A stretch of 64,000 nt of DNA from Candidatus Chisholmbacteria bacterium. Lineage in GTDB: Bacteria > Patescibacteriota > Microgenomatia > UBA1400 > Chisholmbacteraceae. Positions 8,450 through 57,540 of this stretch are shown here, one piece after another. The notes below the pieces were generated by a model. That model ran no database searches. It was not told the origin of the DNA and was given only the letters and a program-made list of their open reading frames with translations. The stretch covers positions 707,438-771,437 of the forward strand of contig CAVPHZ010000001.1 in assembly GCA_963704905.1 (NCBI GenBank), written 5' to 3'. The translations under genes and the position numbers were made by a program. Position 1 is the first letter of the stretch; each line of letters opens with the position of its first letter.

Positions 8450-8553
8450 TTAATTGTCCGTATTGTAGCAGAGCGTTTCTTGCTTCATATTAAATCTCTT
8501 TTTTTTGTCGAAAAAGCGGGAGCTAGTTACATATTAGCACTCTCTGCAACTGA

Positions 8554-8582
8554 TTGACATAATAGACATTCCATGGTATTAT
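8554..8582 (+). promoter_or_regulatory. near-consensus sigma70-type promoter (TTGACA-17-TATTAT)
   Basis: ttgaca at 8554-8559, 17-nt spacer, tattat at 8577-8582. Followed by an imperfect palindrome acattgttag...ctaacattgt (operator-like). Confidence 0.45.
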
Positions 8583-8599
8583 ATAGGACATTGTTAGGC

Positions 8600-9110
8600 T
8601 AATTGTCTAACATTGTAAAAGACCCTGTGAGCGTAAGCGAGCGGGGATTTTAAAAGGATTTAGAAGGCGAGACACGGAAGAATAGGAAAGGCCCTTCAAT
8701 TTGCCATTTAGGGCAGATTTCAGGGTAAAGGCAGCCGCAGGTCGGAGGCCAAACAAGCTTTGGAAAGGCGGTTTGGGCGGACTCTTTTTTTGTGGGTTTA
8801 ATCCTGAGTAGATTACCCATTCCCCAGATCATAATTTCCAAACAACCGTTAGCAACTTGATAGCAGGAATCTGGCTAGGAACATACGCCTTTCCACCCCC
8901 GAGAGGGGGGATCGTTTCTAGCCAGGTTCTTGCTATTAACCCTGTAAGCACTCCGTGTGTAAAGGGCAAGGCAAGAATACACCTCGAGGTGTTGACTAAG
9001 ACACTTGAGGAGTACCTGGGAGTAAGCAACCAGAGGGCAATCCGCGCTTACCTGGTTGGGACTTTCAGGACTAGCACTTTAAAAATCTGCGGAAAGTCTA
9101 TTAAAAAATA
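8600..9110 (+). ncRNA. candidate structured ncRNA; motifs reminiscent of bacterial RNase P RNA (type A)
   Basis: About 1.3 kb without a credible ORF, downstream of a strong promoter. Contains AGGAAAGGCCC (cf. P4 AGGAAAGUCCGG), UUAGGGCAG, GUGUAAAGGGCAAGGCAAGAAUACACC (cf. GUGAAAGGGUGCGGUAAGAGCGCACC), CCAGAGGGC...GCGCUUACC (cf. ACAGAANCCGGCUUA), and a CCCCCGAGAGGGGGG hairpin. Not verified by a covariance model. Confidence 0.35.
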
Positions 9111-9731
9111 ATCCTTTTCTCCTGGCTTCCGTCATGATTAATGATGTGATTCAGGGCAAACAACCTGGTGGATTTTTTGATACGTTGGTGATTTTCACTT
9201 GAGGGACCTAGAAGCTTGAATGCTTGGTTTTCATGAAAAATCAGTAAAACCTTCATGAAAATGTTATAGGTCAATGATTGGGTGGTGCTGTGGATATTTG
9301 GTAAGAGTGCTGATAGCCTGGAGTATTTTGGCTATATCAAGTGTCCAGAGTACCACTCAATCGGAAGGTGGAGTAACACAAAGAAAATGATTCATTTAGC
9401 CAGGTGAAGCCTGGGAAAGGAGAATAGTCGTGGAAAGTGATGGGACAAGTCTGAGGTGTTGCCAGTTCGGATGTTTTTTTCCCATGGCGAGTGGTCAGCC
9501 CTCTGGGCTTCACTTTCCTGGTCAATGGGGATGACCGTGCATTTATTGTTTGGGCTATTGTTTCAGCTAATGAGTCTTCTCAGTTCGTATCTGAGTTGAG
9601 AGGACAGAAGGGTGACGTTTGGCATTTGGTTCTTCTGGCGTTGGGGACGATTGTCAATCTGGTAATTACCATCATTGGGATTGTAGAGTTCGTGTCGATT
9701 TGGATCTAGTTCAACTGCTGATTCCGTTAGA

Positions 9732-10277
9732 GTGCCAGGAAGAACCTGGGAAGGAGAAAATGAAGTGTTTAACAATTTTGAAGTGCAGCTTATCCTGGGA
9801 GCCTTAGCAATTTCTGCGGTTTCCGTCGTCTTTTCAGCAATGTTTGCCAAAACGACTAAGAGTTACTTTTGGCTAAGAGTTGCTACCGGATTTGTTGGAT
9901 CGTGGGCATCGATAATCGGGGTGAGAACGGCAATTGCTTACTTCAATGTCGATTTGCCTGGGTTTTTACAGTATCTTCCGCTGCCGGTGACTTTTTTTGT
10001 GTGGTTCGCGTTTCTGATTCTGGTCGGTGTGGTTTTTGAAGATGAGGATGAGGAAGAAGAGGCTATTGAGTTTGATTCTAACCGGGAATTTGGTTGCAAT
10101 CGTCAATGTTATCTTTCTGCGATGTGCTTCTATGCGGCAACCACGCGGTACATTTCTTATCAACAGCCACAGCCGATGAGCTACGAGACAGTCAATGGAA
10201 CGGTCATTGAGCATTCCGGCATCGAGTCATGGGGACGGCGTTTCACACACGCTTTCAAATTGACGAGTTTAGGATGA
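9732..10277 (+). CDS. hypothetical membrane protein (start uncertain)
   Basis: ORF-track frame with TM segments and an acidic DEDEEEE stretch. It lies in a GC-elevated region full of short broken ORFs; a perfect SD plus ATG at 9760 is in another frame. Confidence 0.3.
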   Translation: MPGRTWEGENEVFNNFEVQLILGALAISAVSVVFSAMFAKTTKSYFWLRVATGFVGSWASIIGVRTAIAYFNVDLPGFLQYLPLPVTFFVWFAFLILVGVVFEDEDEEEEAIEFDSNREFGCNRQCYLSAMCFYAATTRYISYQQPQPMSYETVNGTVIEHSGIESWGRRFTHAFKLTSLG

Positions 10278-11095
10278 TTCCATGGCTTGCCTTCCTGCCA
10301 ATTGCCGATATGGATTCGAGCGTGCAGCTTCGGATCGGGTTACCGCAGGATGGAAACGGCAGTGTTCTATTGCAACCGGCTATTGGCGTGTACGTTGAGG
10401 AAGGAGTGGAAAATTACCACAAGTGCTGCTGGTATTGACATCTATGCTGGTACGAGGCTCGAGCTGAAACCGAACAGATTTATGGACTCGGTCAACGAGT
10501 GTGACCCGAGACGTCACCCGGGGTGCAGATGGACAGGTGAATGATTGGGGTTTTGCTGTCGGTTATGCTCCTCAGGAACTTGCTTTTCGTGAAGAGAGTC
10601 GGAGAATCCGGACTGCTAACGTCAGGGCTGGATGGAGCAAGCAGTTGTAACCCGATACAATCCTAGGAACAACACAGTGAACGTGCAGTTTCAGGATGAC
10701 GGAGCAGAGCTCCAAGGCTGGTCAGCTGGATGGTTTACAGCGAATCGCCGAGCTGTTCGGTGTCAATCGAAGTCTGTAGGGCGCGATCTTGCCTTTGTCT
10801 ACATCGAGGCACGGAGTTGAGGGAGCATGAAGCAATTGGAGGAAGTAAGGTAATGGTCTGACCACAAGCTGGTCGGGGTCACAGATGACCTATGATGTCA
10901 GCTTTGAGGTTGGATTCACAGAGATTCGAGTGAAGCTCCAGGACGGTGGGTACTGCGAAGGCGGTATCTACTTCAACGATTCAGGAGGTTACTATCCAGA
11001 ATATCAGCCATAAATACCGAATAATTAAGCCGATCTGTAGCTCGTCTCAAGACGAGTGAGTATCCAGTCACTGACTGGAAATCCAATAAAGGATA

Positions 11096-11461
11096 GTGAG
11101 ATACTATGAACGCGTCAGTAGTTGTACCAATGTTGTTTGGTCTGTTGGGACCATTTATGGGAGCTTGCATTATCGGCTCTCAGGACTTCGAGAAGAGAGT
11201 CCCAGTCCGATAAAGATTGGTATTTGCCTTATACTGGTGCTGGCATCGATTTTGGCGATCCAATTCAGCTACGCACTCGGTGAGGGTCAGATGACCTTCA
11301 TTTATGTGAGTGCGTATCTAACGCCGTTGATCGTGATTGCAACCGCGGTAGTCGAAGGTAAGAAGTTTCGCGACTTTGCCACTGCGGTGGTGATCTTCGG
11401 TTTGATCGTAGCCGCATCAATCCTATTTCTCCCCGGATTCCGATTGTTGGTTTTTGGGTAG
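11096..11461 (+). CDS. hypothetical small membrane protein
   Basis: 121-aa ORF with 3 hydrophobic segments. The start is ambiguous and support is weak. Confidence 0.3.
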   Translation: MRYYERVSSCTNVVWSVGTIYGSLHYRLSGLREESPSPIKIGICLILVLASILAIQFSYALGEGQMTFIYVSAYLTPLIVIATAVVEGKKFRDFATAVVIFGLIVAASILFLPGFRLLVFG

Positions 11462-11487
11462 GAAAAGAGGCCCAGCATGGCTCCGAG

Positions 11488-11715
11488 GTGGAGAAATCTA
11501 CCAGGGGGTCGGAGCCTCCAGAAAAAAAGGATGAAAAAGAAATGAAAATTCAAGATGTGATCAAGACTTTTCCTAGGTTGTTCCTCGGAGTGGCAATTGG
11601 AATTGCGGTTCAAACTGCCTCTAATTGGCCTCAGTCGACAGCGGTAGCTGTGGTTGTTACCTGTTTGCTCGTGGCAGTTACAGTCGGACATTATGTCCAT
11701 TACAACTTAGAGTAA
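11488..11715 (+). CDS. hypothetical small membrane protein
   Basis: 75 aa with an ATG start, a KE-rich N-terminus and two TM segments. Confidence 0.3.
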   Translation: MEKSTRGSEPPEKKDEKEMKIQDVIKTFPRLFLGVAIGIAVQTASNWPQSTAVAVVVTCLLVAVTVGHYVHYNLE

Positions 11716-12424
11716 GAAAACTCAATAGCCAGCTTTGGGCATACAATACAAGGCAAACTAAAGCTGCGAAAGCAGTGAGATAGAGTGCACAATGCACTCT
11801 CGGGAAGGTTCTCAGCAGCGAGAACGATAGACTTTCCAAAAAGATTTACTAAAAGACGCTGTCTCGTATGGGATGGTGAATGTTCGGAGAATTGGAGGAG
11901 ATGCATTACGCGCATCGGAGTTAGCCTCGGCTATCTTACCCTCCTTTCTTCACAACATTCATTTATCTCTACAGCGTCTTTTTTTTTGGCCAAAATGTGG
12001 TTGATACTTTTCTTTGCTTCTCCAAAGAAAGTATCCAAAGAAATGAAACCCCAGTGACAGTTCTGTCAGGAGCATGTTTCGCTCAATTTATACGATCTAA
12101 CTCCTCGGGATAAACCCTCGACGGACAGTCGATCGTTTCTAGTTGTTTTCGCTCAACATTCTCTTGAATAGCTCCTGTCAAAGGGGATTTGATTGAAATA
12201 GTACTTTAATTCTTTAGCACTATAGTGCTTTTATATTTTTGGTTTGTACTATTTTTGATCTATTCTGCATTCTTTATTTAAATATTCTCTGATTTCTTGA
12301 GAAAATGGGGACGGGGTGTGTGCAATATTTTCTTTATCCAGAGATATAGATAATTCCTATTACGTTCTATTTATATGTATATGTGATATTTCAGTGTTCC
12401 AGGCACATGTGACTTTAATCTCAT

Positions 12425-12453
12425 TTGCTGAGAAGGAAAAAACTTGTTATACT
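12425..12453 (+). promoter_or_regulatory. putative rpsA promoter (TTGCTG-17-TATACT)
   Basis: -35 at 12425-12430 and -10 at 12448-12453 within an AT-rich region, about 200 nt upstream of the S1 start. Confidence 0.35.
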
Positions 12454-12652
12454 ACTCACCATTCTATAGAAAGGTTGGTAAAGAAACTGTTTCAATATCT
12501 TCTTCCTACTACAACACTGCACTTGTCAGCTGTAAAGGATTCATCTCTCCATCGAAGTAGTCTTCAAATACTCCTTCGTCGAGATTTGTCCTTTTCGCAT
12601 GAAACTTCAGTGTTTCGTAACGAAACAAGATCTTGAACCCGTTTCACGATTT

Positions 12653-14121: not shown

Positions 14122-14280
14122 ATGGGAAAAAAACGGTTTGTCGTGTATGATGATCAAATATTGATTGACATGGATTTGCTGTTTCATGCAATCCGAGAGG
14201 CAAACGGAGATTGGAAATCCGTGGAAAAAGAACTGCGGGAATTTATCGAATCGATGCAGTCAATGGGAGGGGAAGAATAG
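14122..14280 (+). CDS. small hypothetical protein (52 aa)
   Basis: AAAGGAG RBS 7 nt upstream of ATG. Product MGKKRFVVYDDQILIDMDLLFHAIREANGDWKSVEKELREFIESMQSMGGEE; below the 60-aa track cutoff. Confidence 0.4.
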   Translation: MGKKRFVVYDDQILIDMDLLFHAIREANGDWKSVEKELREFIESMQSMGGEE

Positions 14281-14444: not shown

Positions 14445-15317
14445 ATGGCGTTTGATGCGCAGGCAGTAGCTCAAAAACTCAGAGATTTTAAGGTTAAGAA
14501 TGTCCGTCTTGACGAGGCGTTTGATTTCAAAACGAAACGAATCAAGGCGCTTGACGTGATGACTCCAGTTGCTGGGAAGCAATTATTTTTGGCCTGCACT
14601 GATGAGCGGCCGATTGAAAAGATCATCAGTCCAAATAATAATGAGGAGATTGATCCGGCTCAATATGTATTGGTTCACGCAGCCGGGGCTGCGTTTGGAT
14701 TGGTTGATGCCATACGGAATGTACGGGTTACCATCCAGCGGCAGGAGATTTTAAATGCGCTGATTGAAAATGAAGTGATTATTGCCAATCATACGGACAC
14801 TCATGCTCCACTTGGTACTCTCACTGGTTGTGGATATGGCGCATTGCGATCCCTTACGGAAAGCGGAAGTATCTTTGATCGGCCTCCAGTTGAATTGCAC
14901 GATCGCTGTGCTTCGTTTGAAGAGATGGGAGCTTGGAGAGTGGTGCTTTCCGGTGACCATACAGCCGAAGGGTTAGTTGTGAATCCATATAAAGATAAGG
15001 CACTTGATCCGAATGCACCGGAAGCGACGAATTCTTTTTTCTCATTAGACTTAGGTATTTATAAAGGGATCTTGCACTGGATTGAAGGAGCGCTTGGATT
15101 CGGTGAAGAGGCAATGCGGACCATGCTGGTAAAAATGGCACGTGATACGCTGGCAGCGGTGTTTATTCTCTCCAATGCTGAGATTGTTGAAGCGATCTAC
15201 GTTGAGCATGCAGATGAGCAAGATCAATTTTATGCAGGTGTTTTGCATGAAGGATTGGGAGAACTGAAGGAACGAGAAGGGGCAGTTATGCATGTGCTTG
15301 AGCAGAGGATGAAGTAG
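14445..15317 (+). CDS. hypothetical protein with beta-carbonic-anhydrase-like CxDxR / HTD-x10-CG motifs
   Basis: The likely start MAFDAQ follows GAAGGAAAAAAAT; the track ORF starts upstream at 14211. Motifs LACTDERP ... VIIANHTDTHAPLGTLTGCGYG. Paralogous to the next gene. Confidence 0.55.
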   Translation: MAFDAQAVAQKLRDFKVKNVRLDEAFDFKTKRIKALDVMTPVAGKQLFLACTDERPIEKIISPNNNEEIDPAQYVLVHAAGAAFGLVDAIRNVRVTIQRQEILNALIENEVIIANHTDTHAPLGTLTGCGYGALRSLTESGSIFDRPPVELHDRCASFEEMGAWRVVLSGDHTAEGLVVNPYKDKALDPNAPEATNSFFSLDLGIYKGILHWIEGALGFGEEAMRTMLVKMARDTLAAVFILSNAEIVEAIYVEHADEQDQFYAGVLHEGLGELKEREGAVMHVLEQRMK

Positions 15318-15395
15318 ACTGCTTATTGATATTAGGCAGCTTTTTTGGTATATTTGACATCACTCTCCAGAGGGAGAGTTTTTTATTTGCTTATT

Positions 15396-16916
15396 ATGTC
15401 ACCAGAACATCCAGATTTACTTGGCAATCCAAATAAACTTGAAGCTGAGGTTTTCGCTGCCCAAACTCAATGGTTACGAGAGATGTACAGCGGAAGACCA
15501 CGGCAAAAAATTGAACGAGGACTCGATGTTGCTGAAACAATCGTGTTTGATGAGTCCTATCGAGTTGCCGCATATCTCGAGTCTGATCAGTATAAAAAAC
15601 AAAGAAAGAGACTTGAACAATTCCTAGCTGAGAATGTCCGGGTTGCGGAGATTATCTGTATTGATGGGAGACTTGTTCCGTGGACGAGAATGTTGGCACG
15701 AGTGACCAGTGCATTTTCAACACCAGCAGGGATATTGGATGGAAAACAAAAATATGATGGAGAAGTGCTTCCAGGTAGCGAGACACTTAACCGAAGCATT
15801 CGAAATTCTACAAATGCTGGTGATCATGTTATAGAGTTTGCTGGTGTCCATACTTCACTGCACCATAACCGCGATGTCGAGCACCCTAAAGGTTGTGGAA
15901 AGCTCAATGCTGACTTGCGGAGCGGTCCACTTGAAATTCATCCGTCACAATTCCGAGATGGGGCTGTTGCCTTTGATCTTGCTAGAGGTGAGCGGATTAG
16001 TACCTATGACATGCTCGATAATGCAGGAGCAATTGTTATTCCTCGAATTATTGATACCGATTCACAGGGCCTGATTTATATTGGTGATTCTGTGATGGAC
16101 GATATTACTGAGCCAGGAATTAATTATTACGAAACCGAGAGTGTTAGTTTGGGCGGTATTGTGGTTCGTCATAATCAAAGACGTGTGTTTTCAACAAAAC
16201 TTATTCTAACCAATGAACCTGAACTTCCTGATTATTTAAGACAATCAGAGTACAAGTCAGGGAGTGTTAAACTAGATTTTGTTGAAGACCTTCCAAAAAC
16301 GATTGAGCGGATCGTAGATCTCACTGAACATCTGATGCAAACTGAATTTACTGAAGACTGGACTGATAGATTCCGATCAATGTACGATGAGAGAAATTTA
16401 CCCGAGGAGGTCATTCAAGCACTTGTAGTTTATGCTGCTTACAATGTTTCAACTCTATGGTTGTCTGGTTATCATGATGATGAAAAAGTCCCTCATCGCT
16501 TCTCAAATCACGGAGAGCGGTTTGCCGCTGCTGGGGATAAGACACCTGCAGATTTTTGGATTGAGCACTCGCCATTTATCGTTTCTGGTTCGGAAACAGA
16601 GGAGGTTGTAGAAGAGAATCTTGATGTAGCCTTTTCACTCTTGCCAGGTATTTTAGAAAAAACACACGGCGTGGACTTGGATGAAGAAGCAATGCTGCTT
16701 ATTGTAGCAGGCTCGTTAGATCCTGATTCTGATCCTGAAACCCAGAGGAGAGCTGAGGTTTCTTTAGCTGAGCGTTATTTTCAAAAAGTGCAGCATTTGG
16801 AAAAGACTGGACGGTTACGCTCGGGTGAAATCGTTGCATTGCCAGTACTCGTTCATCAAAAAACTAGAAAGCCGATTCGCATTCCAGATTTTTCTGATCA
16901 CTATGCAGCTCGGTAA
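15396..16916 (+). CDS. hypothetical protein, paralog of 14445..15317 (CIDGR / HTS-x12-CG)
   Basis: 507 aa from MSPEHPD. Motifs EIICIDGRLVPW ... VIEFAGVHTSLHHNRDVEHPKGCGKL. Long C-terminal extension without recognisable domains. Confidence 0.55.
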   Translation: MSPEHPDLLGNPNKLEAEVFAAQTQWLREMYSGRPRQKIERGLDVAETIVFDESYRVAAYLESDQYKKQRKRLEQFLAENVRVAEIICIDGRLVPWTRMLARVTSAFSTPAGILDGKQKYDGEVLPGSETLNRSIRNSTNAGDHVIEFAGVHTSLHHNRDVEHPKGCGKLNADLRSGPLEIHPSQFRDGAVAFDLARGERISTYDMLDNAGAIVIPRIIDTDSQGLIYIGDSVMDDITEPGINYYETESVSLGGIVVRHNQRRVFSTKLILTNEPELPDYLRQSEYKSGSVKLDFVEDLPKTIERIVDLTEHLMQTEFTEDWTDRFRSMYDERNLPEEVIQALVVYAAYNVSTLWLSGYHDDEKVPHRFSNHGERFAAAGDKTPADFWIEHSPFIVSGSETEEVVEENLDVAFSLLPGILEKTHGVDLDEEAMLLIVAGSLDPDSDPETQRRAEVSLAERYFQKVQHLEKTGRLRSGEIVALPVLVHQKTRKPIRIPDFSDHYAAR

Positions 16917-17028: not shown

Positions 17029-17709
17029 ATGAGTCTGGCAGAGTTTGTCGGTAAGCAGAAATCGAATGGTCCAGAGTTACCAAGGGCTCTAGTTGTGTTT
17101 GGAACTGGGCCTCACAACGATTATTCAGATTGGCTTGGCAGACCATTCGAAGGTTTCTGGAAAAAGGAAGTAGAAGAACGTCAGTCGATTGCTTCTGATG
17201 TACTATCCAAGTTTCCGCATGCTGCATTGATTGCCGTTGGTGGAGAAACATGGGTAGACAGTTCGTTAGGTGTCGTGAGTGAAGCAGGGTACATGATTCA
17301 TGGACTGACACAAGACGGTTCAGTGCTTGAAGAGACAGATCTATTTCTCGCTGAGAGCGGTGTTGAGACTGTCGAACAGGTTGATGAAATTCTAGAAATT
17401 CTTCGTCGAGAAAACCTTACTCATGGAGCTATCGGTGTGGTTACCTCTTGGCATCAGATGCTACGGACTGCTGTTTTGTTTAAAACCTGGGAAGGGATTC
17501 AGATTGAGCCTCATGTTGCCGGTGAAATTCAGTTCAATCGCAGAGTCATTGAAGAAGGCATCAACGGTTTTGGTGGTTTAAGCTATACAGTATTGATGTT
17601 GGGTCTGCAAAACTTCGGACTATGGGAAGATGGTGGTCCATATCTTTTGAGCTGTCGTTCAAGAAGACGTGCGAACAATCAGCGGATTCGAGACAGTTTC
17701 CAATGGTGA
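17029..17709 (+). CDS. DUF218 (YdcF/SanA-like) domain protein
   Basis: 226 aa with a VVTSWHQMLRTAVLFK motif resembling the TSxxHMxRA signature of DUF218. Confidence 0.5.
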   Translation: MSLAEFVGKQKSNGPELPRALVVFGTGPHNDYSDWLGRPFEGFWKKEVEERQSIASDVLSKFPHAALIAVGGETWVDSSLGVVSEAGYMIHGLTQDGSVLEETDLFLAESGVETVEQVDEILEILRRENLTHGAIGVVTSWHQMLRTAVLFKTWEGIQIEPHVAGEIQFNRRVIEEGINGFGGLSYTVLMLGLQNFGLWEDGGPYLLSCRSRRRANNQRIRDSFQW

Positions 17710-25315: not shown

Positions 25316-25391
25316 TGGTGGACCGTAGCGGGGTCGAACCGCTGACCTTTTGCATGCCATGCAAACGCTCTACCAACTGAGCTAACGGCCC
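25316..25391 (-). tRNA. tRNA-Ala (anticodon GGC), CCA encoded
   Basis: GGGCCGTTAGCTCAGTTGGTAGAGCGTTTGCATGGCATGCAAAAGGTCAGCGGTTCGACCCCGCTACGGTCCACCA. All four stems pair, the G3:U70 Ala identity pair is present, and the anticodon loop is AT-GGC-AT. Confidence 0.85.
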
Positions 25392-27326: not shown

Positions 27327-27455
27327 TGAGGTGGGTTTGGGTGTTATTGGTGGTGTTGTCGGTGGCGATGGTAATAGGGATAAGCGTGGATGATTGGTTG
27401 GTGGTGAAAGTTGGTTAATATTTTGAATGTCCCCTCTGCAAAATTTGTGGACGGG

Positions 27456-27527
27456 AGACCTAGCCGGGGTCGAACCGCTGACCTTTTGCATGCCATGCAA
27501 ACGCTCTACCAACTGAGCTAACGGCCC
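27456..27527 (-). pseudogene. degenerate copy of tRNA-Ala(GGC)
   Basis: The 5' 62 nt (acceptor 5' strand through T-loop) are identical to the gene at 25316..25391. The 3' part carries a 1-nt insertion in the T-stem and changes that abolish acceptor-stem pairing (…CCCCGGCTAGGTCTCCCG). About 25 nt upstream are also similar. Confidence 0.6.
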
Positions 27528-28325: not shown

Positions 28326-28526
28326 TATCTTGTGTGCACTTTCTTCCTTGACTTGATCATACTCTTTTTATTGATTCCATAGTTCGTTATTTCACTGGGA
28401 TGTGGGGTTCTCCGAAGACTCTTGAGCCTGGAAAAAATGGCTAAAAGGTGAAAGGGGAAGCGCTTAACAGAATTCAATTTGGACGTGGGGGAGGAATCGT
28501 TTGAGATGAATATGAGTGCCTCTTTG

Positions 28527-28597
28527 TGGACTCACCGGGAGTCGAACCCGGAATCTACCCATGCGAAGGGTAAGGTATACCATTTACCTATGAGCCC
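28527..28597 (-). tRNA. tRNA-Ala (anticodon CGC), CCA not encoded
   Basis: GGGCTCATAGGTAAATGGTATACCTTACCCTTCGCATGGGTAGATTCCGGGTTCGACTCCCGGTGAGTCCA. Cloverleaf with G3:U70, anticodon loop TT-CGC-AT, T-arm CCGGG/TTCGACT/CCCGG. Confidence 0.75.
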
Positions 28598-40153: not shown

Positions 40154-43100
40154 TTAGTGGCCGACCAGGTGGCGGTAGCCCGATGAGTCGGTGGAGGTGG
40201 CGCCGAAGACGGCAGATTTGCCTTGGTTCATTTCTGCTTTGACTTGGTCGGCAGTGAGGGCGAAGTTGTAGATTTTGACTTCGTCGATTTTACCATCCCA
40301 GTATTCACCCCATGCTGTGTTATACCCAATATAGATGGGGAGTGAATGAGAACTGAGGTTAAGTGTGCCTGATGCGCTGACACTATCTTCAAGAATACCG
40401 TTTTTATAGAGCTTAATAATCGATCCGTTATAAGTGACAGCTAGATGAGTCCATATACCAGTTGAAATACTTACACTAGAATTCCAATCGCAAGTTTGTG
40501 GTCCGGAGAGGACAACACCAACAGTTCCTCCTTGAGTGTAGAAATAGATGTTTTTTCCTGTACACGCTCCAGCACCTGCTGTGAAAGCTGACATGATAGT
40601 GTCGTATCCACTAAGTGTAGATGGGTTTACCCATGCAGAAAGGGTGATTTCGTCCGAAGGATTAAGACTGTCATCATCAGCAATGCTTATGTAATCACCA
40701 CCATCATAATTTAGTGCTTTCCCATATTTTCCCTCGTTGGTCCAACTTGGGCAGGTTGCTGCTCCAGGGCAGGAGCCTTGAAGGTCACCGTTGTTTCCTT
40801 GGGGTGAGGAATCGTTGGCCGCGTCGCCGTAACCTTCATCAAAATTTAGGTGGAGAACCGGAGATCCGATGGGGGAGCCGGGGGCGGGGTGTCCGGCGTT
40901 CATGTCGGAAATGATTTGGGAAGGGTTGCGTTCGTAACTATACAGCTTCACTTCATCGAAAATCCCTGGAAAGTTATAGCCAGAGCCAGCGACCCAGTTA
41001 CCTAGCACTGGTGTATTTAGTGGATTCCCAGTATCCATTGTCGTCGCTGAGGTTGTTGAAGTGTCAACTAAAATTCCATTGACATATAATTTATGTATAT
41101 CCGTGACGCTGTTATACACTGCGGCTACGTGATACCACTCATGAGTTGAAAAGGTGTTTGGATCACAGACAATCACTGAACTTTGTCCTGCTGATCTGAA
41201 AAAAGCCCCAAACACACCAGCTCCGCATCCTGCATAATTGTTAATTACTCCTACTACATTTCTTCCGACACTAGACATATCTGAAGTATTTTCTGCGTAA
41301 AAATACCTACCCCGTCCGCTTGTTCCAGATGATGTAGGATAAACCCAGCCTTCGGTTGTGAAGGCAGCTAAACCTTTGACGCTTGATGCGGTACTTAGAG
41401 AGATTCTGTCAGTAGAACTTGTGAAGCTTGATGTTTCTATTCCGTTCCCGAATTTGCCGTTTCTCCAGAGAACTGTGGTTGTGTTACCCAGTGTTCCTGT
41501 GATGCCGTTTCCGCTTGAATCGTACGCCTTGTCATTTTGTCCTTCATCTAATTTCCAGTATCCGAACGGTCCTGGGGCCCAGTTGTAGAGAGCGGAAACT
41601 TCGGCGGGGGAAAGGGCTTTCTGGTAGTAGCGAACCTCGTCTACAATCCCAGGGTAAAACGAGCTTGTGGCGTCTCTACTTCCTACATTGAAATTGCTGG
41701 AGGCATCGGTGATGTTGTTGCCACCGCCGTTGGTTGTAGACACATATGTCGCCTCAATGCCATTGACATAGATGTGCGCTTCGCTTGCTGATGTCGTCCC
41801 ACCGAATGTCACGACGACGTGGTTCCACTGGCTGGTCGAGAATATGTTGTTGGCTGTTACTATTTCGAGGTTCGGATTATCGTCTGTTTCTTTGAGAAAT
41901 GCGATGGCGTTTGTTGGAATGAGCGCTAATCTCCAATATCCGGTATCTCCCGATGTATTGCGTTTTGATATGACATATCCAGTATCGCTCGTGGGTTTGA
42001 TCCATGCAGATGCTGTAAACGGACCAGAGCCATCCAGTGAGTCTGGACTCCCCATGGCAATGTTGTCATCGGTGCCGTCTACCTGACAGCCGTACCCAAA
42101 TTTTCCTGGGACGGTGCAGTCCATTCCGGTAGTGTTTGCTCCGTAGTCGGTAGTTCCGTTGTTGCTGTTACCCGATGAATCTGTCACAGTTTGACCATCT
42201 CCTGAGACGTTGTCATCCATTTTCCAATACCCAACTAGGCCGTTTGAGAGCCAGGAATTGTCAGGGCCGAAGGAGGCTGCAGCGCCTTTGTTGTAATCGA
42301 CTTTGATTTCGTCTGCCGAGCGGGCATAGGGGTAGATTTTTACCTCATCAATGAATCCATCAAACGCGCCGTCAACACTGGCGCCTCCTGCCCAATTGGC
42401 TGCGCCAACCCATAGCGGGTCGTTTGATAGAGTGGGTGCAACGTCGGCTCCACCATCAGCAGCTTCTACAGGCATTCCGTTGAGATATGCTTGCCAGCTC
42501 GATGAGGTTCCAAAAGTAAAGGTCATGGCAAAATGCATCCATTTGTTTTCAACAATCCGGTCATCGTTGATGCCCCAATCGGGGTAACCTCCACCGCTTT
42601 GTTCGTATCCGAACTTGATTTCGTTATCTCCTGATCCATCTGCATCCCAAATCCAGATTTGATAGTTGGCGTTGTCTGAGCCTGTTGTTGCGCCTTTGCC
42701 GAGCAAGATGCCCTGATCAGAATAGCCGGGTATTGTTGTGGCTTTAAACCAGAATGCGATGGTTATTTCGTCGCCACTATCAAAATCGAGTACGCTGTTT
42801 GCGCCTGGGTCGGCGACGCTGACGTAATCATCTGTCCCGTCAAACTGGAGGCACTTACCGTTTTTACACATGTCTTCAGTCTGCCAGGTAGCGCCGTTTC
42901 TGACGCCGTCGTTTTTCCCAACACCTATGTCGCAAGTGTCGTCTGTACCGTTTTCGCAGGTGTTGTCCGTGCCTTCATCGAACTTCCAGTAGGCAATTGG
43001 GCCAGGGCCGATTTCTTCACTTCCTGCACTTGGAGCACCTCCAGAGGGGGAGAGGGATGTGTAGCTTGATAGGTCTTCTGAAACGGAGCCTGCGGAAGGA

Positions 43101-43546
43101 TTTCCGTAGTAATGATAGAAGGCATTGCCTCCATTAATAATGGTGGGAAAGAGGACATCATAGGTTGTGGCGGCGTTATTGCAGGTGCCGGTGAGATCGA
43201 GTCTCAAGAGTAATCCGTTGATGTCGGTGAACCTGCTGTCATCACAGTCAGATTGCATTTTTCCGGCTGTGATCAAAGTTGCGGTATCAATTGTTACCTC
43301 AACCCTTCTGTCAGTGAGTGCTGCATTGTGGGTAAAGGAGTACCTTGTTCTATATGCCCAGGAGTCATCGAACCAGCCTGCTTGTGCGGGTTGAGAATGA
43401 TAGAGGGAGTAGAGAATGACGGGGAGCAATACCAAGAGCAAACCTCCCGCAACTGGAAGCAGTTTTCTTCTGTTTTTTTGGATTGCAGATTTCATTGCAG
43501 ATTTCAGAGATTTCAGATTTATGATGCTAAGTCTAAATTTCTTCAT
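40154..43546 (-). CDS. giant DUF2341 + tandem LamG_3 (concanavalin-like) surface protein, gene B (longest intact ORF, 1130 aa)
   Basis: N-terminus MKKFRLS...NRRKLLPVAGGLLLVLLPVILYSLYHS, then AGWFDDSWAYRTRYSF...DCDDSRFTDINGLLL...YHYYGNPSAGS (DUF2341-like), then at least 6 LamG-type units each ending ..[FI]DEVK[IL]Y.Y.R....I. A 12-bp tandem repeat sits in the first codons. Confidence 0.8.
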   Translation of the reverse strand: MKKFRLSIINLKSLKSAMKSAIQKNRRKLLPVAGGLLLVLLPVILYSLYHSQPAQAGWFDDSWAYRTRYSFTHNAALTDRRVEVTIDTATLITAGKMQSDCDDSRFTDINGLLLRLDLTGTCNNAATTYDVLFPTIINGGNAFYHYYGNPSAGSVSEDLSSYTSLSPSGGAPSAGSEEIGPGPIAYWKFDEGTDNTCENGTDDTCDIGVGKNDGVRNGATWQTEDMCKNGKCLQFDGTDDYVSVADPGANSVLDFDSGDEITIAFWFKATTIPGYSDQGILLGKGATTGSDNANYQIWIWDADGSGDNEIKFGYEQSGGGYPDWGINDDRIVENKWMHFAMTFTFGTSSSWQAYLNGMPVEAADGGADVAPTLSNDPLWVGAANWAGGASVDGAFDGFIDEVKIYPYARSADEIKVDYNKGAAASFGPDNSWLSNGLVGYWKMDDNVSGDGQTVTDSSGNSNNGTTDYGANTTGMDCTVPGKFGYGCQVDGTDDNIAMGSPDSLDGSGPFTASAWIKPTSDTGYVISKRNTSGDTGYWRLALIPTNAIAFLKETDDNPNLEIVTANNIFSTSQWNHVVVTFGGTTSASEAHIYVNGIEATYVSTTNGGGNNITDASSNFNVGSRDATSSFYPGIVDEVRYYQKALSPAEVSALYNWAPGPFGYWKLDEGQNDKAYDSSGNGITGTLGNTTTVLWRNGKFGNGIETSSFTSSTDRISLSTASSVKGLAAFTTEGWVYPTSSGTSGRGRYFYAENTSDMSSVGRNVVGVINNYAGCGAGVFGAFFRSAGQSSVIVCDPNTFSTHEWYHVAAVYNSVTDIHKLYVNGILVDTSTTSATTMDTGNPLNTPVLGNWVAGSGYNFPGIFDEVKLYSYERNPSQIISDMNAGHPAPGSPIGSPVLHLNFDEGYGDAANDSSPQGNNGDLQGSCPGAATCPSWTNEGKYGKALNYDGGDYISIADDDSLNPSDEITLSAWVNPSTLSGYDTIMSAFTAGAGACTGKNIYFYTQGGTVGVVLSGPQTCDWNSSVSISTGIWTHLAVTYNGSIIKLYKNGILEDSVSASGTLNLSSHSLPIYIGYNTAWGEYWDGKIDEVKIYNFALTADQVKAEMNQGKSAVFGATSTDSSGYRHLVGH

Positions 43547-53000: not shown

Positions 53001-55643
53001 ATCTTCTGCGTAGATTCCATAGTCCCAGTTAGTGCCTTGCTGGTAGATGGCGTATTCGGTAGAGGTGGTTTGTGCGGCAAGATCCTCGATGTGAAGCCCG
53101 TAGGTAGTTGATCCGGCTACTGAGGTCAGATTACTGAAATCTAGATTGAGCCCGGTGAGCGCGCCGGTTTGGGTCTCGGCTGAGTCAAAGGCGATGTCTA
53201 CTAAAGTTCCAGTCTCAAAGACATCGGCGCCGATGTCGATAGGTGTGGCTGAATCAGCACCGAAGAGGATATCGACGTTTCCAGACATATTGATTCCTGT
53301 ATCCCATCCAGATCCGATGTTGATCGCTGTTTCTGAAGCGCTGCTGCCGGCGGTTCCGTCGATGTTGATAGCATAGAGTGTTTCATCTCCAGATGGAGTG
53401 TTGACTGTGTCGAGATTGAGATGGAGGAGTGATTCAGTGACTGCGCCGGCACTGTTGCCAAATTCTCCGGCGATGTAGAGCGCGTCAACTCCATCAGTGA
53501 CAATACCGGTTGTGTTACCGGTGAGGTTGATGACTGCTGCATCGACGGTTGGGATGGTGTTGTTGGTTGTGTTTTCCAGCTCAAACTGCGTATCACCAGC
53601 GTCTCCGTATCTCAGACTCAAGTAGTCTGAGATGGATGATTTAGTGATGACTCCGCCTGAACTTGAGAATGCTCCAGCACTTCCACCACCCTGATCGGTT
53701 GAGGCATCCATGAAGGCAATGAGTTTCCAGTCTGTTCCATCGTACTGCCAGGTGGTGACGTCTCCGGTAGCCGTGACAATATCCGTTGTTCCTCCACTTA
53801 AACCTGAAGAGGTGACGTCGAAGGTGATATCTCCATTGCTTTCGATCACGACAAATTGTCCTGGAGCAAGAGAGTCCGTGCCGGCGTCAAAGTCTGTGAT
53901 GGTGAAACTGGTTGAGCCGGTGATCCAGTTGGTTCCACCTGAAATATCTGGGGTTGCGTCCGCATCTGCGAGCGTTTGCTGTGCGCCAAATCCTATACCA
54001 GCTTCCGCCAGGATTCCGATATCGAGATTTGTTCCTTGTTGATAGAGGCCATACTCAGTTGAATTTGTTTGGCTGGCCGGGTCGTTGATGTGTATGCCGT
54101 ACAGATTGTTTGTGCCATCGGGAGTAAGGTTAGTAAGGTCGATGTCTATACCGAGAATGTCACCGCCTGATTGAGATGTCGCCCCTCCCCAGTCGATGTT
54201 GAGGATGTCACCACTGGTATTGTTGATGTCTAGGTCCAATGCTGTCTGGTCAACATCGTCTTGATCAATGGTGAGGGCGATGAGGTCTGCGGTTCCGGTG
54301 TCGATTTCTACGAGACCGGCTGGAGCGATAACATCTGCACCGATTCCGAGTTGACCGGTAGTGGTGATGGTGAGGAAAGCATTGGTTCCCGGTGTAGTGC
54401 CGTCTCCGATTTGGAAGAAATCGTCGTCGTCCCCGCCAGCATCTTCATCGACACCAATCCAGAAATCGGTATCCGTGGCGGTGGCGACGTCAAAGATGAT
54501 GCTGGGGTCGGCGTCTTGAAGCATGACGTTGCCTCCCGATGTTCCTCCTGGAGTGAGGAGGATGTTTCCGTAGTTGTAGGTGTTTAGCGTGAGATTGTTA
54601 CTTTCAAAACTCTCTCCGACGTCAATGGTGAACGGTCCGTATGACTCGATTTGGCTGGCAGTTTGGTTAGTAAAGATCGCGTCATAGGAGAAGGAGACAT
54701 CTCCGGCAGCGGTAAAGGAGTGGGGGACTGCAGATTCTATCTGGGTTTGGGAAACGGTGAAGACATCTGAGCCGTTATCATAGACCGCAAACAGATTCCC
54801 CGTGACTGTTGCATTCCCATTGACATCAATCACAAACAGGTCAGCATCAGTGGTATCTGCTGATCCCGGGTTCCAGGCAAATCTTCCCAGGGCTCCATTG
54901 AGGGATCCATCTGCAAGTCCGGTTGAGGTTGATTCCACATAGAGGGCATTACCGGTGGTTAAACCATCTGCTGACATGGCAAATAAGCCTGAGGTTTGGA
55001 TGGCATCGGCAGTGATATCGATGAGGTTTTCAGTGGTCAGGGCTCCGGTCCAGTCAATGTCAAACAGACCGCCTCTGGTTCCGGCGCCATTGAGGTCGAA
55101 GGTGGCGACGGTGCCGGTGGTGTTGTTGTCATTGACCTCAATCATGCTGGCGGTACGGGCACTGGCCGTATTGCCGATGACCATGGCTTGGGAATCAACC
55201 GCAGTTGCACCCAAGTCGATGTTGATGACGTCTCCAGTTGCTGCTCCGGCGCCGACGTTGACATCGATAAGGTTGCTCGTCCAGGCTTGTGCTCCAGTGG
55301 TGATGTCGATGAGGTTTTCGTTGGTGAACGCTCCGGAGGTATCGATATCAAAGATCCCTCCTCTTGTTGATGAGCTGTCAATATCAACGGTGGCGACCGT
55401 GCCGGTGGTGTTGTTCTCGGTGATCTGTACGGCTGATTGGGTTCTGGCTCCGGCTGAGGTCGACATGACTAACCCTTGAGCGCCCGTAGCTGCGGCGCCC
55501 ATTGAAATGTTGATTGCGTCACCGGTGTCGGCAATGTTGCCGAAGTTGAGGTCAACTAAGTTTCCTGATGAAGCAGCTGGTGGAGGTGGTGATATCGATG
55601 ATATTTGAGGCAGGACCACCAGTGATATTGAAGTCCATGACAT
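50070..55643 (-). CDS. C-terminal 1857 aa of a giant repetitive T/G/D/N/A-rich beta-solenoid-like surface protein
   Basis: The first 390 aa are identical to an internal segment of 55552..63993, and its start overlaps that ORF by 92 nt through a 1-nt indel. It has repeated ...NLIDITTGAQAWTSN... and GDxINIDLGATAV units, and a C-terminal module (DLAEYFVSTEELEEGDVVKIDPNETVRIHKAREPYDPTVIGIIS...GRVPVHV) followed by a coiled coil and tail. Confidence 0.7.
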   Translation of the reverse strand: MSWTSISLVVLPQISSISPPPPAASSGNLVDLNFGNIADTGDAINISMGAAATGAQGLVMSTSAGARTQSAVQITENNTTGTVATVDIDSSSTRGGIFDIDTSGAFTNENLIDITTGAQAWTSNLIDVNVGAGAATGDVINIDLGATAVDSQAMVIGNTASARTASMIEVNDNNTTGTVATFDLNGAGTRGGLFDIDWTGALTTENLIDITADAIQTSGLFAMSADGLTTGNALYVESTSTGLADGSLNGALGRFAWNPGSADTTDADLFVIDVNGNATVTGNLFAVYDNGSDVFTVSQTQIESAVPHSFTAAGDVSFSYDAIFTNQTASQIESYGPFTIDVGESFESNNLTLNTYNYGNILLTPGGTSGGNVMLQDADPSIIFDVATATDTDFWIGVDEDAGGDDDDFFQIGDGTTPGTNAFLTITTTGQLGIGADVIAPAGLVEIDTGTADLIALTIDQDDVDQTALDLDINNTSGDILNIDWGGATSQSGGDILGIDIDLTNLTPDGTNNLYGIHINDPASQTNSTEYGLYQQGTNLDIGILAEAGIGFGAQQTLADADATPDISGGTNWITGSTSFTITDFDAGTDSLAPGQFVVIESNGDITFDVTSSGLSGGTTDIVTATGDVTTWQYDGTDWKLIAFMDASTDQGGGSAGAFSSSGGVITKSSISDYLSLRYGDAGDTQFELENTTNNTIPTVDAAVINLTGNTTGIVTDGVDALYIAGEFGNSAGAVTESLLHLNLDTVNTPSGDETLYAINIDGTAGSSASETAINIGSGWDTGINMSGNVDILFGADSATPIDIGADVFETGTLVDIAFDSAETQTGALTGLNLDFSNLTSVAGSTTYGLHIEDLAAQTTSTEYAIYQQGTNWDYGIYAEDNVFLASTLDTGTVMKIDNSDADLAGNTSLLDLEFTDNSDENAYWLRGYDTNGSVLQFALKQASAGYGAFQLGSEATNESTPLSYLHIGDSLDGGAIGTLVENTHANGFANLQAMNDGGGNNIASFGVGGSTTTANVYGNRGYVSSSANLNGLSLIAAGSGDDIRLFTGGEATTNERMRIEGDGGVVVGNTSTTALFEVDVGSTDAVTGFLLDTDDTDQIAMQITAAQIDADVLDIQADALTTAQGIQLSVDALTTGNAMYVESTSTGLADGSLNGALGRFAWNPGSADTTDADLFVIDVNGNATVTGNLFAVYNNGSDVFTVSQTGITSAVPHAFTASGDVSMAYDLVFTNQTSSNIKTDAPFTIDVGEASESNNLTLKTYNSGDIVFDLSAEGTAIVQGGFSLDAQQTLTADSATPDVSAGSHWITANTSGTAYTNFTDGTDGQIIIVEVNDANSTIECDGTPTTSINCGSTDITLADGDVITFALNSSTWNLISFMDDSDNHNTGSGFDLAEYFVSTEELEEGDVVKIDPNETVRIHKAREPYDPTVIGIISTQPGLILGDGGEENSYLVALAGRVPVHVDPDSPSILAGDFLTSSENGQATKAIDSGHVIGQAMESWTAGSGIDQIMLFINPGWHESDVLFAINTFGDISAQQEQIELNLDQALQDLDNLAQQSTDQTDEIQTIEDILETHSSDIAGLATTTDELQTEVATQSGQLSEHDQRIADLEANLVLFEQFLDLAQPATSSGTPTGGDLNIDGIALVGDELQIDHDLRLLGKAVLEDTTILGTLNVGFLQIDDIDTSINALAQDLKLQSLPLAGNIDAFNGKIVLTPQGDISIEGRITAKEVTAPKAGFGDLVAGKLTIATQSAVLAVTTEATGSSQPQQPPAQPTVQAPSIGSATLPANQRSIYVQTSAVTKNSKIFITPAGLTQVVLGVTLIDEGQGFWVETPVPATADLKFNWWIIDVVATASQN

Positions 55644-57540
55644 TGGCTGAAGCGTTTAGGGATCCGGAGGAATTAATCTGGAAGATGGCGGCATCGTCGG
55701 AGGCAGAACCGGTGCTAGCGGTGGTGATATCAATTAATGCGTCGGTTCTTGCCCCACCTGCGTCAGCGACAACAAAGGCGCCACCGGCGAGGTTGCTTGA
55801 ACCCATGCTGATATTGTGAATGTCTCCGGTTGAAGCAGCGGCGCCGACATTGACGTCAAATATGTTTCCAGTCCAAGCTTGGGCGCCGGTGGTGATGTCG
55901 AATATATTTCCGGTCCAGGCTGCAGAAGTGTCGATGTCCATGAGCCAGCCGGCAGTGTTGGAGATGGCTGCGTTACTGACAACAAAGTTTTGCAGGGCTA
56001 CGGCGTTGGCCGGTACAGCGACGTTGAAGATGTCTCCGGTTTGAGCGGCGTTCCCAGGATTGATGTCAATGTAGTTCCCGGTTGCGGCTTGGGCTCCCGA
56101 GGTGATATCGATGACGTTTGAAGCAAAGGTTCCCGTGGTGTTGATGTCATAGATGTTGGCAAGTGAATTCAGGTTTCCTGATGCATTGATTTGGAAAATC
56201 GCTGCGTTGTCAGAGGCGGAACCGGTACTGGCGGTGGTGATGTCGATGATGGCGTCAGTTCTGGCGCCGCCGGCAGCTGAGACGACGAAGGCTCCTCCAG
56301 CGAGGTTGTTGGTTCCCATGTTGACGTTTAGAGCATCACCGGTTGAGGCTGCGGCTCCGACGTTGATATCAATGAGGTTACTGGTCCAGGCTTGAGCTCC
56401 GGTGGTAATATCGATTAAGTGCTCGGTTCCGAAAGCTCCGGTGGTGTCGATGTCAAAGAGACTTCCTCTTGTGCCACCAATGTTAAAGTCAAATGTGGGT
56501 ACTGTGCCGCTAGTATTATTGTCGTTAATCTCGACCATGCTGGCTGTTCTGATGCTTGAGGAGTTGCTAATGACCAAGGCTTGGGCGTTGACTGCGGTTG
56601 CACCTAGGTCAAGGTTGATGAGGTCTCCGGTAGCCGCAACAGCACCGATGTTCAGATCGAGAAGATTGGATGTGAAGGCTGCGGAGGCGGTGATATCAAT
56701 TAGATGTTCGGTTCCCAAGGCTCCAGTTAGGTTGGCGTCTAGGAGCCCTCCTCTGGTTTCAGCAGAATCCCATTGAATGGTGGGGACGGTTCCGGTGGTG
56801 TTGTTTTCATTGATGTCTATGAGGGCTGTGGTTCTTACCCCTGAAACACTGGTCAAATCAAGGGCCTCACCGGCGACTGCGGAAGAGATCGCTGCTCCGG
56901 TGTCCCATCCGGAGCCGATATTGATGGCTGTTTCACTGGCTCCGGTTCCGGTAATACCATCCAGATTTATTCCATAGAACAAGTCCCCAGATCCGCCTCC
57001 AGCGATAGGGTCAAAGTTCACATGAAGTCCTGAGATTGTTCCATCCGCGACGATATTTCCAGCCTCCATGATAAGGTACAACCCATCAACTCCATCGGTA
57101 ACGATTCCAGTGTTGGTTGCGCCAGAAGAGAGATCAATAGAAATTGCATCGGCGGTGGGAATGACTTGGTTGGTTGAGCTGTCGATTTCAAACTGAATAT
57201 CTGCTGCATCACCATATTGGAGCCGGAGTCTATCAGCAGCGGTGAATTTATCAATGATGCCTCCACTGGTGGTAAATGGCTGACTGGCCCCGGTGGCCCA
57301 GCCGCAGTTGGTGAGGGCCGGATCACAGAGCAGATCATCTCCCCAGTACAAGGATCCGGTGGCCTGTCCCGGTCCGGTACCGAAGTTGATGACGTTGTTG
57401 GCAGAGGCATCCACATTCAAGCCAATGGTGGTGCCATTGACCGAGAGTCCGGTATTGAACAGGGCATCGTCTTCCACATAGAGGCCATAGTCCCAACCGG
57501 TGCCAGCCTGATAGATACCATATTCATCGCCGTCTTTTGC
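54450..57540. repeat. segmental duplication copy 1 (about 3.1 kb) within the giant gene
   Basis: Near-identical to 57950..60740 (offset 3502 bp, then 3198 bp after a 304-bp indel); e.g. ORF 54996..55370 = 58498..58872 and 57018..57416 = 60216..60614. Confidence 0.7.

Follow-up and report, generated by a model that had tools for sequence, protein, structure and literature searches.

Predicted divergent homologues of zeta-class carbonic anhydrases and of CsoSCA are encoded by adjacent genes of a Candidatus Chisholmbacteria bacterium

In canonical beta-class carbonic anhydrases (CAs; Pro_CA family; 1DDZ, 2A5V), the zinc ion is held by a Cys/His/Cys ligand set with an HxxC spacing between the last two ligands, an Asp-Arg dyad lies in a CxDxR motif, and the enzymes are homodimers of equal subunits. 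The zeta-class CAs also use two Cys and one His as metal ligands and have kept the Asp/Arg dyad of the beta class (PMC8217695), and a single repeat of the zeta-class enzyme CDCA mimics a whole beta-CA dimer (PMC4413181). CDCA1 is the cadmium/zinc CA of diatoms. For CsoSCA, the carboxysomal CA of the epsilon/beta subclass, the active site comprises C173, D175, R177, H242, C253, H397, and E399 in the H. neapolitanus numbering, and the His-Cys spacing (H242 to C253) is 11 (PMC9164163 Table 2). Stand-alone CsoSCA2 genes, which have been collected via Pfam08936, are widespread and unstudied, and they occur also in six phyla of the Candidate Phyla Radiation (CPR) (PMC9164163). According to a review (PMC10880623), zeta-CA and CsoSCA are possibly beta-CAs that have diverged deeply. 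Here we describe two adjacent genes from a Candidatus Chisholmbacteria bacterium that probably encode divergent CAs of the beta type, one zeta-like and one CsoSCA-like, each of them a single chain of "pseudo-dimeric" organization. The genes are located in a stretch of 64,000 nt (contig CAVPHZ010000001.1, positions 707,438 to 771,437), which is called the window below and to which the coordinates refer unless a related locus is named.

Gene 1 (14445-15317, + strand) encodes a protein of 290 aa, protein 1, and starts with an ATG that is preceded by a ribosome-binding-like sequence, aaggaaa. It is adjoined on the same strand by gene 2 (15396-16916, +), which encodes protein 2 of 506 aa. In protein 1, the predicted first metal ligand and the Asp/Arg dyad are contained in C51-T-D53-E-R55 (14595-14609, +; translation checked), and the family alignment and the hidden Markov model (HMM) alignment place the predicted second and third ligands in H116-TDTHAPLGTLTG-C129-G (14790-14834, +), that is, H116-x-D118 … G128-C129-G130. 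The corresponding elements of protein 2 are C88-I-D90-G-R92 (15657-15671, +), the counterparts of C173/D175/R177 of CsoSCA, and H152-TSLHHNRDVEHPKG-C167-G (15849-15899, +), the counterparts of H242/C253, for the predicted zinc ligands and the dyad. The C-terminal domain of protein 2 contains in addition H372-G-E374 (16509-16517, +), the counterparts of the active-site residues H397/E399. The distance between the second and the third ligand is 13 residues in protein 1 and 15 residues in protein 2.

The C-x-D-x-R…H…C-G motifs had already been reported for both proteins in a preliminary description of this DNA, and their presence and positions were confirmed. The distance from Cys to His, which had been given as about 75 residues, is in fact 65 (protein 1) or 64 (protein 2) residues. 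When the 115 open reading frames (ORFs) of the window with 100 aa or more were searched for the pattern C.D.R.{45,90}H.{2,17}CG, only proteins 1 and 2 matched. After the residues of the ORFs had been shuffled, a window contained 0.01 matches on average, and a chance origin of the motif pair was thereby ruled out. The residues are, moreover, invariant in the homologues of both proteins, and thus the motifs are not a chance observation.

Protein 1 belongs to a small family. Its relatives in the protein database form only 19 clusters, which have 41-67% identity to it and a uniform length of about 290 aa. One of these clusters holds NCBI/UniProt entries of Candidatus Chisholmbacteria that are labelled "hypothetical" or "uncharacterized". 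In the alignment with the 19 homologues, C51, D53, E54, R55, H116, D118, G128-C129-G130, and H172 are invariant, and the His-Cys spacing is 13 in every one of the 19 members. The sole Pfam match of protein 1 was CDCA (E 0.042). The same model was matched by 10 of the 19 family members, with a best E value of 4e-4, and all of these matches were under the cutoff. The alignments of the family members to CDCA are colinear, span profile positions 2-142, and cover all three putative ligands; those of P0009, P0012, and the second paralogue of locus L001 (see below) start upstream of the first Cys and are also colinear across the three ligands. When the family profile was compared with the PDB, chains of CDCA1 (3boh/3bob) ranked first (E 0.2-0.6), and the alignment placed H116, D118, G-C129-G, R146-P, and G-x-H172 on identical residues of CDCA1. 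By contrast, a phmmer search of the PDB with protein 1 retrieved nothing relevant.

The AlphaFold2 model of protein 1 (predicted local distance difference test, pLDDT, 92; predicted template modelling score, pTM, 0.92) was compared with the PDB using Foldseek. Significant matches were obtained to six chains of CDCA1 only, with E values of 1.5e-7 to 2.3e-6, a probability of 1.00, and TM(target) values of 0.64-0.70, and the first match after the CDCA1 chains followed at an E value of 0.035. No beta-CA was present among the best 50 Foldseek matches listed for this model. Judged from the CDCA fold of the model and the colinear Cys/His/Cys and Asp/Arg residues, protein 1 is a very divergent zeta-class homologue, namely a CDCA-like protein with a single repeat and with N- and C-terminal extensions.

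For protein 2, a word-indexed homologue search with the protein sequence and with its family profile (A2) retrieved only protein 2 itself, whereas an exhaustive search of 1.84 billion representatives yielded 35 relatives. Nearly all of them have a length of 460-570 aa and match from end to end. C88, D90, R92, H152, C167, and E374 occur in all 34 homologues that were aligned, and H372 in 33 of them. The loop between the second and the third ligand is variable: the His-Cys spacing ranges from 3 to 17 in the family, with a mode of 10, and is 14-15 in the clade of the window protein. One member, P0047, has the canonical HxxC motif with a spacing of 3.

The AlphaFold2 model of protein 2 (pLDDT 92) yielded as top Foldseek matches the CsoSCA structures of Halothiobacillus and Cyanobium (2fgy, 9g4t, 8thm), with E values of 1.5e-10 to 6e-9 and over the full length (537-564 columns). 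The tandem beta-CA 1ddz followed with an E value of 5.5e-5, and then other beta-CAs matched weakly. All seven active-site residues of CsoSCA are matched in order by C88, D90, R92, H152, C167, H372, and E374, an equivalence that we derive from the order of the residues, the pattern, and the fold rather than from a residue-level alignment. In the model, the N-terminal region is helical and is followed by the catalytic domain, which a helical linker joins to a C-terminal domain that is beta-CA-like but defunct. The C-terminal region of about 330 aa, to which no function had been assigned before, can be explained as a CsoSCA-type linker and a catalytically defunct second domain that supplies H372-x-E374, because the match to CsoSCA extends over the full length and H372 and E374 lie in this region. 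On the basis of the model, protein 2 is a stand-alone, CsoSCA2-like homologue of CsoSCA and is very divergent. As its clade escapes the Pfam08936 model that was used for collecting CsoSCA2 genes, it would represent a deeper or faster-evolving branch.

Several results weigh against these assignments. Neither protein matched any NCBIfam model. The match of protein 1 to Pfam CDCA reached 13.9 bits and was thus below the gathering cutoff of 29.2, and protein 2 had no Pfam match at all, with no CsoSCA model appearing at E <= 10. Among the 34 relatives of protein 2, only three matched Pfam CsoSCA_cat, and they did so weakly (E >= 0.014). The A2 profile did not retrieve CsoSCA (2FGY) from the PDB but gave spurious weak matches only, and a phmmer search of the PDB with protein 2 also found nothing relevant. 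The TM-scores of the models are moderate (0.5-0.7), and both His-Cys loops exceed those of the characterised enzymes in length. Furthermore, enzymes with the same ligands can hydrolyse carbonyl sulfide (COS) or CS2 instead. Nevertheless, we regard the assignment of fold and family as highly probable for both proteins. The wider proposal that both are CAs is also probable, but our confidence in it is lower, because the CA activity itself is what we infer from these assignments.

If the proposal is correct, each protein would likely bind one Zn(II) ion, coordinated by the Cys-His-Cys set and by water. The zinc-bound hydroxide, which attacks CO2, would be oriented by the Asp and Arg of CxDxR, and the reaction would be CO2 + H2O <-> HCO3- + H+. 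The site of protein 2 would be completed by H372 and E374 from the defunct second domain, as in CsoSCA, and each of the two chains would imitate a beta-CA dimer with one active site. No obvious signal peptide was seen in either protein when the N-termini were read by eye, and therefore both are probably cytoplasmic. A likely role would be the supply of bicarbonate/CO2 or the buffering of pH in a minimal fermentative cell.

The two genes are separated by a spacer of 78 bp (15318-15395, +). In consensus scans, hairpins resembling terminators were located at 15319-15339 and 15362-15379, both with a T-run behind them, and a promoter-like TG-extended site at 15326-15354. This suggests that gene 2 may be transcribed separately from gene 1, or via attenuation. 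The gene order in the window is rpsA (encoding S1), an ORF of 52 aa, gene 1, gene 2, a gene for a DUF218 protein, radA, and rho. A LysM-M23 peptidase gene, tRNA-Ala genes, and a Na+/H+ exchanger gene are found farther away, and no Rubisco or shell genes were found near the pair.

The order rpsA, small ORF, CA-like gene or genes, radA, and rho was also found in 14 related loci from genomes of Candidatus Chisholmbacteria and from metagenomes. The occupancy of the slot between rpsA and radA is not uniform. The zeta-like gene is present alone in L003 and L007-L010, while it is combined with a CsoSCA-like gene in the window and in L002. In L001 it is accompanied by a second, distant zeta-like paralogue (hhalign 89%; Pfam CDCA E 0.0018), for which a sequence search of the PDB gave nothing informative. 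In L004 and L011-L014 the zeta-like gene is followed by a gene for an unrelated protein of 310 aa. A CsoSCA-like gene is present alone in L016 and in L015, where it lies directly before radA in a locus without upstream sequence, and L017 has two CsoSCA-like genes. More distant members of the protein 2 family are encoded in ordinary housekeeping contexts.

Some further features of these loci are worth mentioning. The 52-aa ORF (MGKKRFVVYDDQILIDMDLLFHAIREANGDWKSVEKELREF…; 14122-14280, +) between rpsA and gene 1 is strongly conserved in every locus that is long enough. It is near-identical at the same place in L001 (5786-5941) and L002 (2696-2854), and a related ORF of 47 aa is present in L016 (1325-1468). 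It had no Pfam match; it is a syntenic companion of the CA-like genes, and whether it belongs to a unit with them is uncertain. The DUF218-domain protein is encoded between gene 2 and radA (17029-17709, +; E 6e-6, just under the Pfam cutoff), and its gene is absent from the related loci that were examined. The 310-aa protein of L004 (5938-6870), also found in L011-L014, contains CIDDG … H-A-R-C-G; comparisons with the two CA-like families, Pfam, and the PDB revealed no similarity, and it was not counted as a CA. In L017 (1317-4895), a protein of 660 aa contains CVDQG … H-R-G-C-G, with the canonical HxxC spacing and without the dyad Arg. By hhalign (70%), it is a relative of the protein 2 family in the N-terminal half of the latter, and its gene lies directly upstream of a CsoSCA-like gene of 506 aa, which is followed by radA.

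Two observations concern the contexts of distant members of the protein 2 family. In L020 (178-2249), the gene of P0042 divergently adjoins a small gene of the beta-CA family Pro_CA_2, which is a second case of two CA types occurring together. In L005 (1273-5940), the gene of P0026 lies directly downstream of genes for Proton_antipo_M and a fused Complex1_30kDa/49kDa protein, an arrangement like that of DAB/NDH-type systems for vectorial CO2 hydration. A general link of the family to membrane proton-pumping (DAB-like) complexes was rejected, as only one of the eight contexts examined was of this kind.

The variable occupancy of the slot invites a more far-reaching proposal, which we regard as tentative and rather doubtful. 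The slot might be a dedicated, rapidly reshuffled locus for inorganic carbon, at which enzymes of the zeta-like and CsoSCA-like types replace each other or act in a complementary way. The zeta class would gain its first branch from bacteria, with a single repeat and with protein 1 as founding member, and the two proteins of the window would have distinct roles, for example as a CA and a COS/CS2 hydrolase, with different metals, or as parts of a heteromeric complex.

Other explanations for the gene pair have to be weighed against divergent CAs of two classes. The preliminary description had taken the genes for tandem paralogues, and had suggested that an insertion of 10-12 residues between His and Cys founds a new subfamily of beta-CAs. 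The motif logic is indeed identical in both proteins, the loop of the protein 2 family behaves like an insertion with its 3 to 17 residues, and true tandem paralogues occur at the slot elsewhere, namely in L001 and L017. The possible descent of zeta-CA and CsoSCA from beta-CAs (PMC10880623) would also fit such a view. However, no similarity between proteins 1 and 2 was detected by BLASTP (E >= 9.8), the comparison of the two family profiles with hhalign gave a probability of 1.4% and aligned an irrelevant segment, and the lists of PDB structures matched by the two models in Foldseek had zero overlap. The two proteins are thus not detectable paralogues but relatives of two different described classes. 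The spacing does not define an undescribed subfamily either, because long spacings are already typical of zeta-CA (10) and of CsoSCA (11). The duplication view has therefore been largely refuted already and is hardly tenable. What holds from it is that the loop length is truly variable in the protein 2 family, and that both proteins have a beta-CA-type Cys/His/Cys and Asp/Arg site on folds that are modelled as CA folds rather than as an unrelated fold; what does not hold is the assignment to one shared family. As zeta-CA and CsoSCA may themselves be divergent beta-CAs, the earlier intuition was right at the level of the active site.

Two further explanations accept the folds and differ in the function. 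One or both of the proteins might hydrolyse COS, CS2, or another small heterocumulene (cyanate, carbodiimide-like) at the same Zn(Cys)2His site, and the pair might divide the labour, so that COS would be converted to CO2 and H2S and the CO2 would then be hydrated. CDCA1 acts on CS2 in addition to CO2, and the CS2 hydrolase of Acidianus has the fold and the site of a beta-CA (PMC8217695). In addition, two different CA-like genes have been kept next to each other in a genome of less than 1 Mb, which suggests that they are not redundant, and the gene of P0042 likewise has a CA-type neighbour. On the other hand, no sulfur-metabolism context was found, the neighbours being genes for S1, DUF218, RadA, Rho, and the LysM-M23 peptidase, and the occurrence of either type alone at the slot elsewhere fits interchangeability better than an obligatory cooperation. 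We thus consider this function unlikely. A very unlikely explanation is that the proteins have retained the CA fold only and serve as sensors of CO2/bicarbonate or of metals, as scaffolds, or for the storage of zinc. The extreme divergence, the longer ligand loops, and the additional C-terminal helical extension of protein 1 would be compatible with such roles, and degraded, inactive derivatives of CsoSCA have been described in Thiomicrospira (PMC9164163). However, the known inactive derivatives have lost active-site residues, whereas the ligands and the dyad of proteins 1 and 2 are invariant in 19 and 34 homologues, respectively, at mean column identities of 25-62%. Non-catalytic roles are improbable because the catalytic residues are invariant, and divergent CAs of two classes are the reading that we prefer.

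Three additional features of the window lie outside the region of the gene pair. Unusually for a genome that is otherwise gene-dense, no ORF exceeds 181 aa on either strand of the region 8450-12598 (about 4.1 kb), and this region matched neither Rfam families (E <= 0.1) nor phage DNA. Three tRNA-Ala genes, two with a GGC and one with a CGC anticodon, are found on the minus strand (25316-25391, 27453-27527, and 28526-28597) within 3.3 kb, with protein genes between them. In the part from about 28000 to 64000, an increase in GC content is seen, from about 0.40-0.44 to 0.52-0.57, and the minus strand contains very large ORFs, e.g., of 2813 aa at 55552-63993 and of 1130 aa at 40154-43546. These may encode surface or secreted proteins, or belong to an island of distinct composition.

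Genomes of such organisms are smaller than 1 Mb and are thought to hold essential functions only. If proteins 1 and 2 are active, they would be CAs that are missed entirely by the current annotation pipelines. Both proteins have the annotation "hypothetical", and relatives carry the labels "hypothetical" or "uncharacterized". To our knowledge, the zeta class has been characterised in diatoms only, and it would be extended to uncultivated CPR bacteria, while a deeper branch would be added to the unstudied group of stand-alone CsoSCA2 proteins. The protein 2 family alone has His-Cys loops of 3 to 17 residues, which indicates that the beta-type zinc site is tolerant, and this would help to spot further cryptic CAs.

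A comparison with the described enzymes shows where the two proteins stand. The Cys/His/Cys zinc ligands and the Asp-Arg dyad of CxDxR are common to them and to canonical beta-CAs, and the same ligands and dyad are found in the CS2/COS hydrolases of beta-CA fold. In contrast to canonical beta-CAs, both lack the HxxC spacing, neither of them matched Pfam Pro_CA, and both have one active site per two-lobe chain instead of forming homodimers of equal subunits.

Protein 1 resembles CDCA1 of Thalassiosira weissflogii (PF18484; 3BOB, 3BOH, 3UK8, 7BEZ) in its fold and in the colinear order of CxDxR, Cys…His-x-Asp…Gly-Cys-Gly, R-P, and G-x-H. Like CDCA1, it is modelled as one chain of two lobes that imitates the dimer of a beta-CA and has one metal site. 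It differs from CDCA1 by an identity of only 17-18%, by a single repeat instead of three tandem repeats, by about 20 additional N-terminal and about 55 additional, helical C-terminal residues, and by its origin from a non-photosynthetic CPR bacterium instead of a diatom. The His-Cys spacing of CDCA1 is 10 in the HMM alignment with 3boh/3bob, and thus a long spacing is a feature of the class, to which protein 1, with a spacing of 13, adds three residues.

Protein 2 shares with CsoSCA and CsoSCA2 (PF08936, PF20686; 2FGY, 9G4T, 8THM) the length of about 500 aa, the three-part architecture, and the seven active-site residues. It differs by an identity of only 12-14%, by a His-Cys loop of 15 instead of 11, by a stretch of 205 instead of 144 residues from the third ligand to HxE, and by a disordered N-terminus of only about 11 residues. 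Unlike the gene of the carboxysomal enzyme, its gene does not belong to an alpha-carboxysome locus. This fits the stand-alone CsoSCA2 proteins, which protein 2 resembles in being encoded outside any carboxysome locus and in a CPR bacterium. The occurrence of CsoSCA2 in CPR bacteria and the long His-Cys spacing of both classes were already known. In summary, the gene pair represents neither a new catalytic principle nor a new kind of system, but divergent variants of described CA classes.

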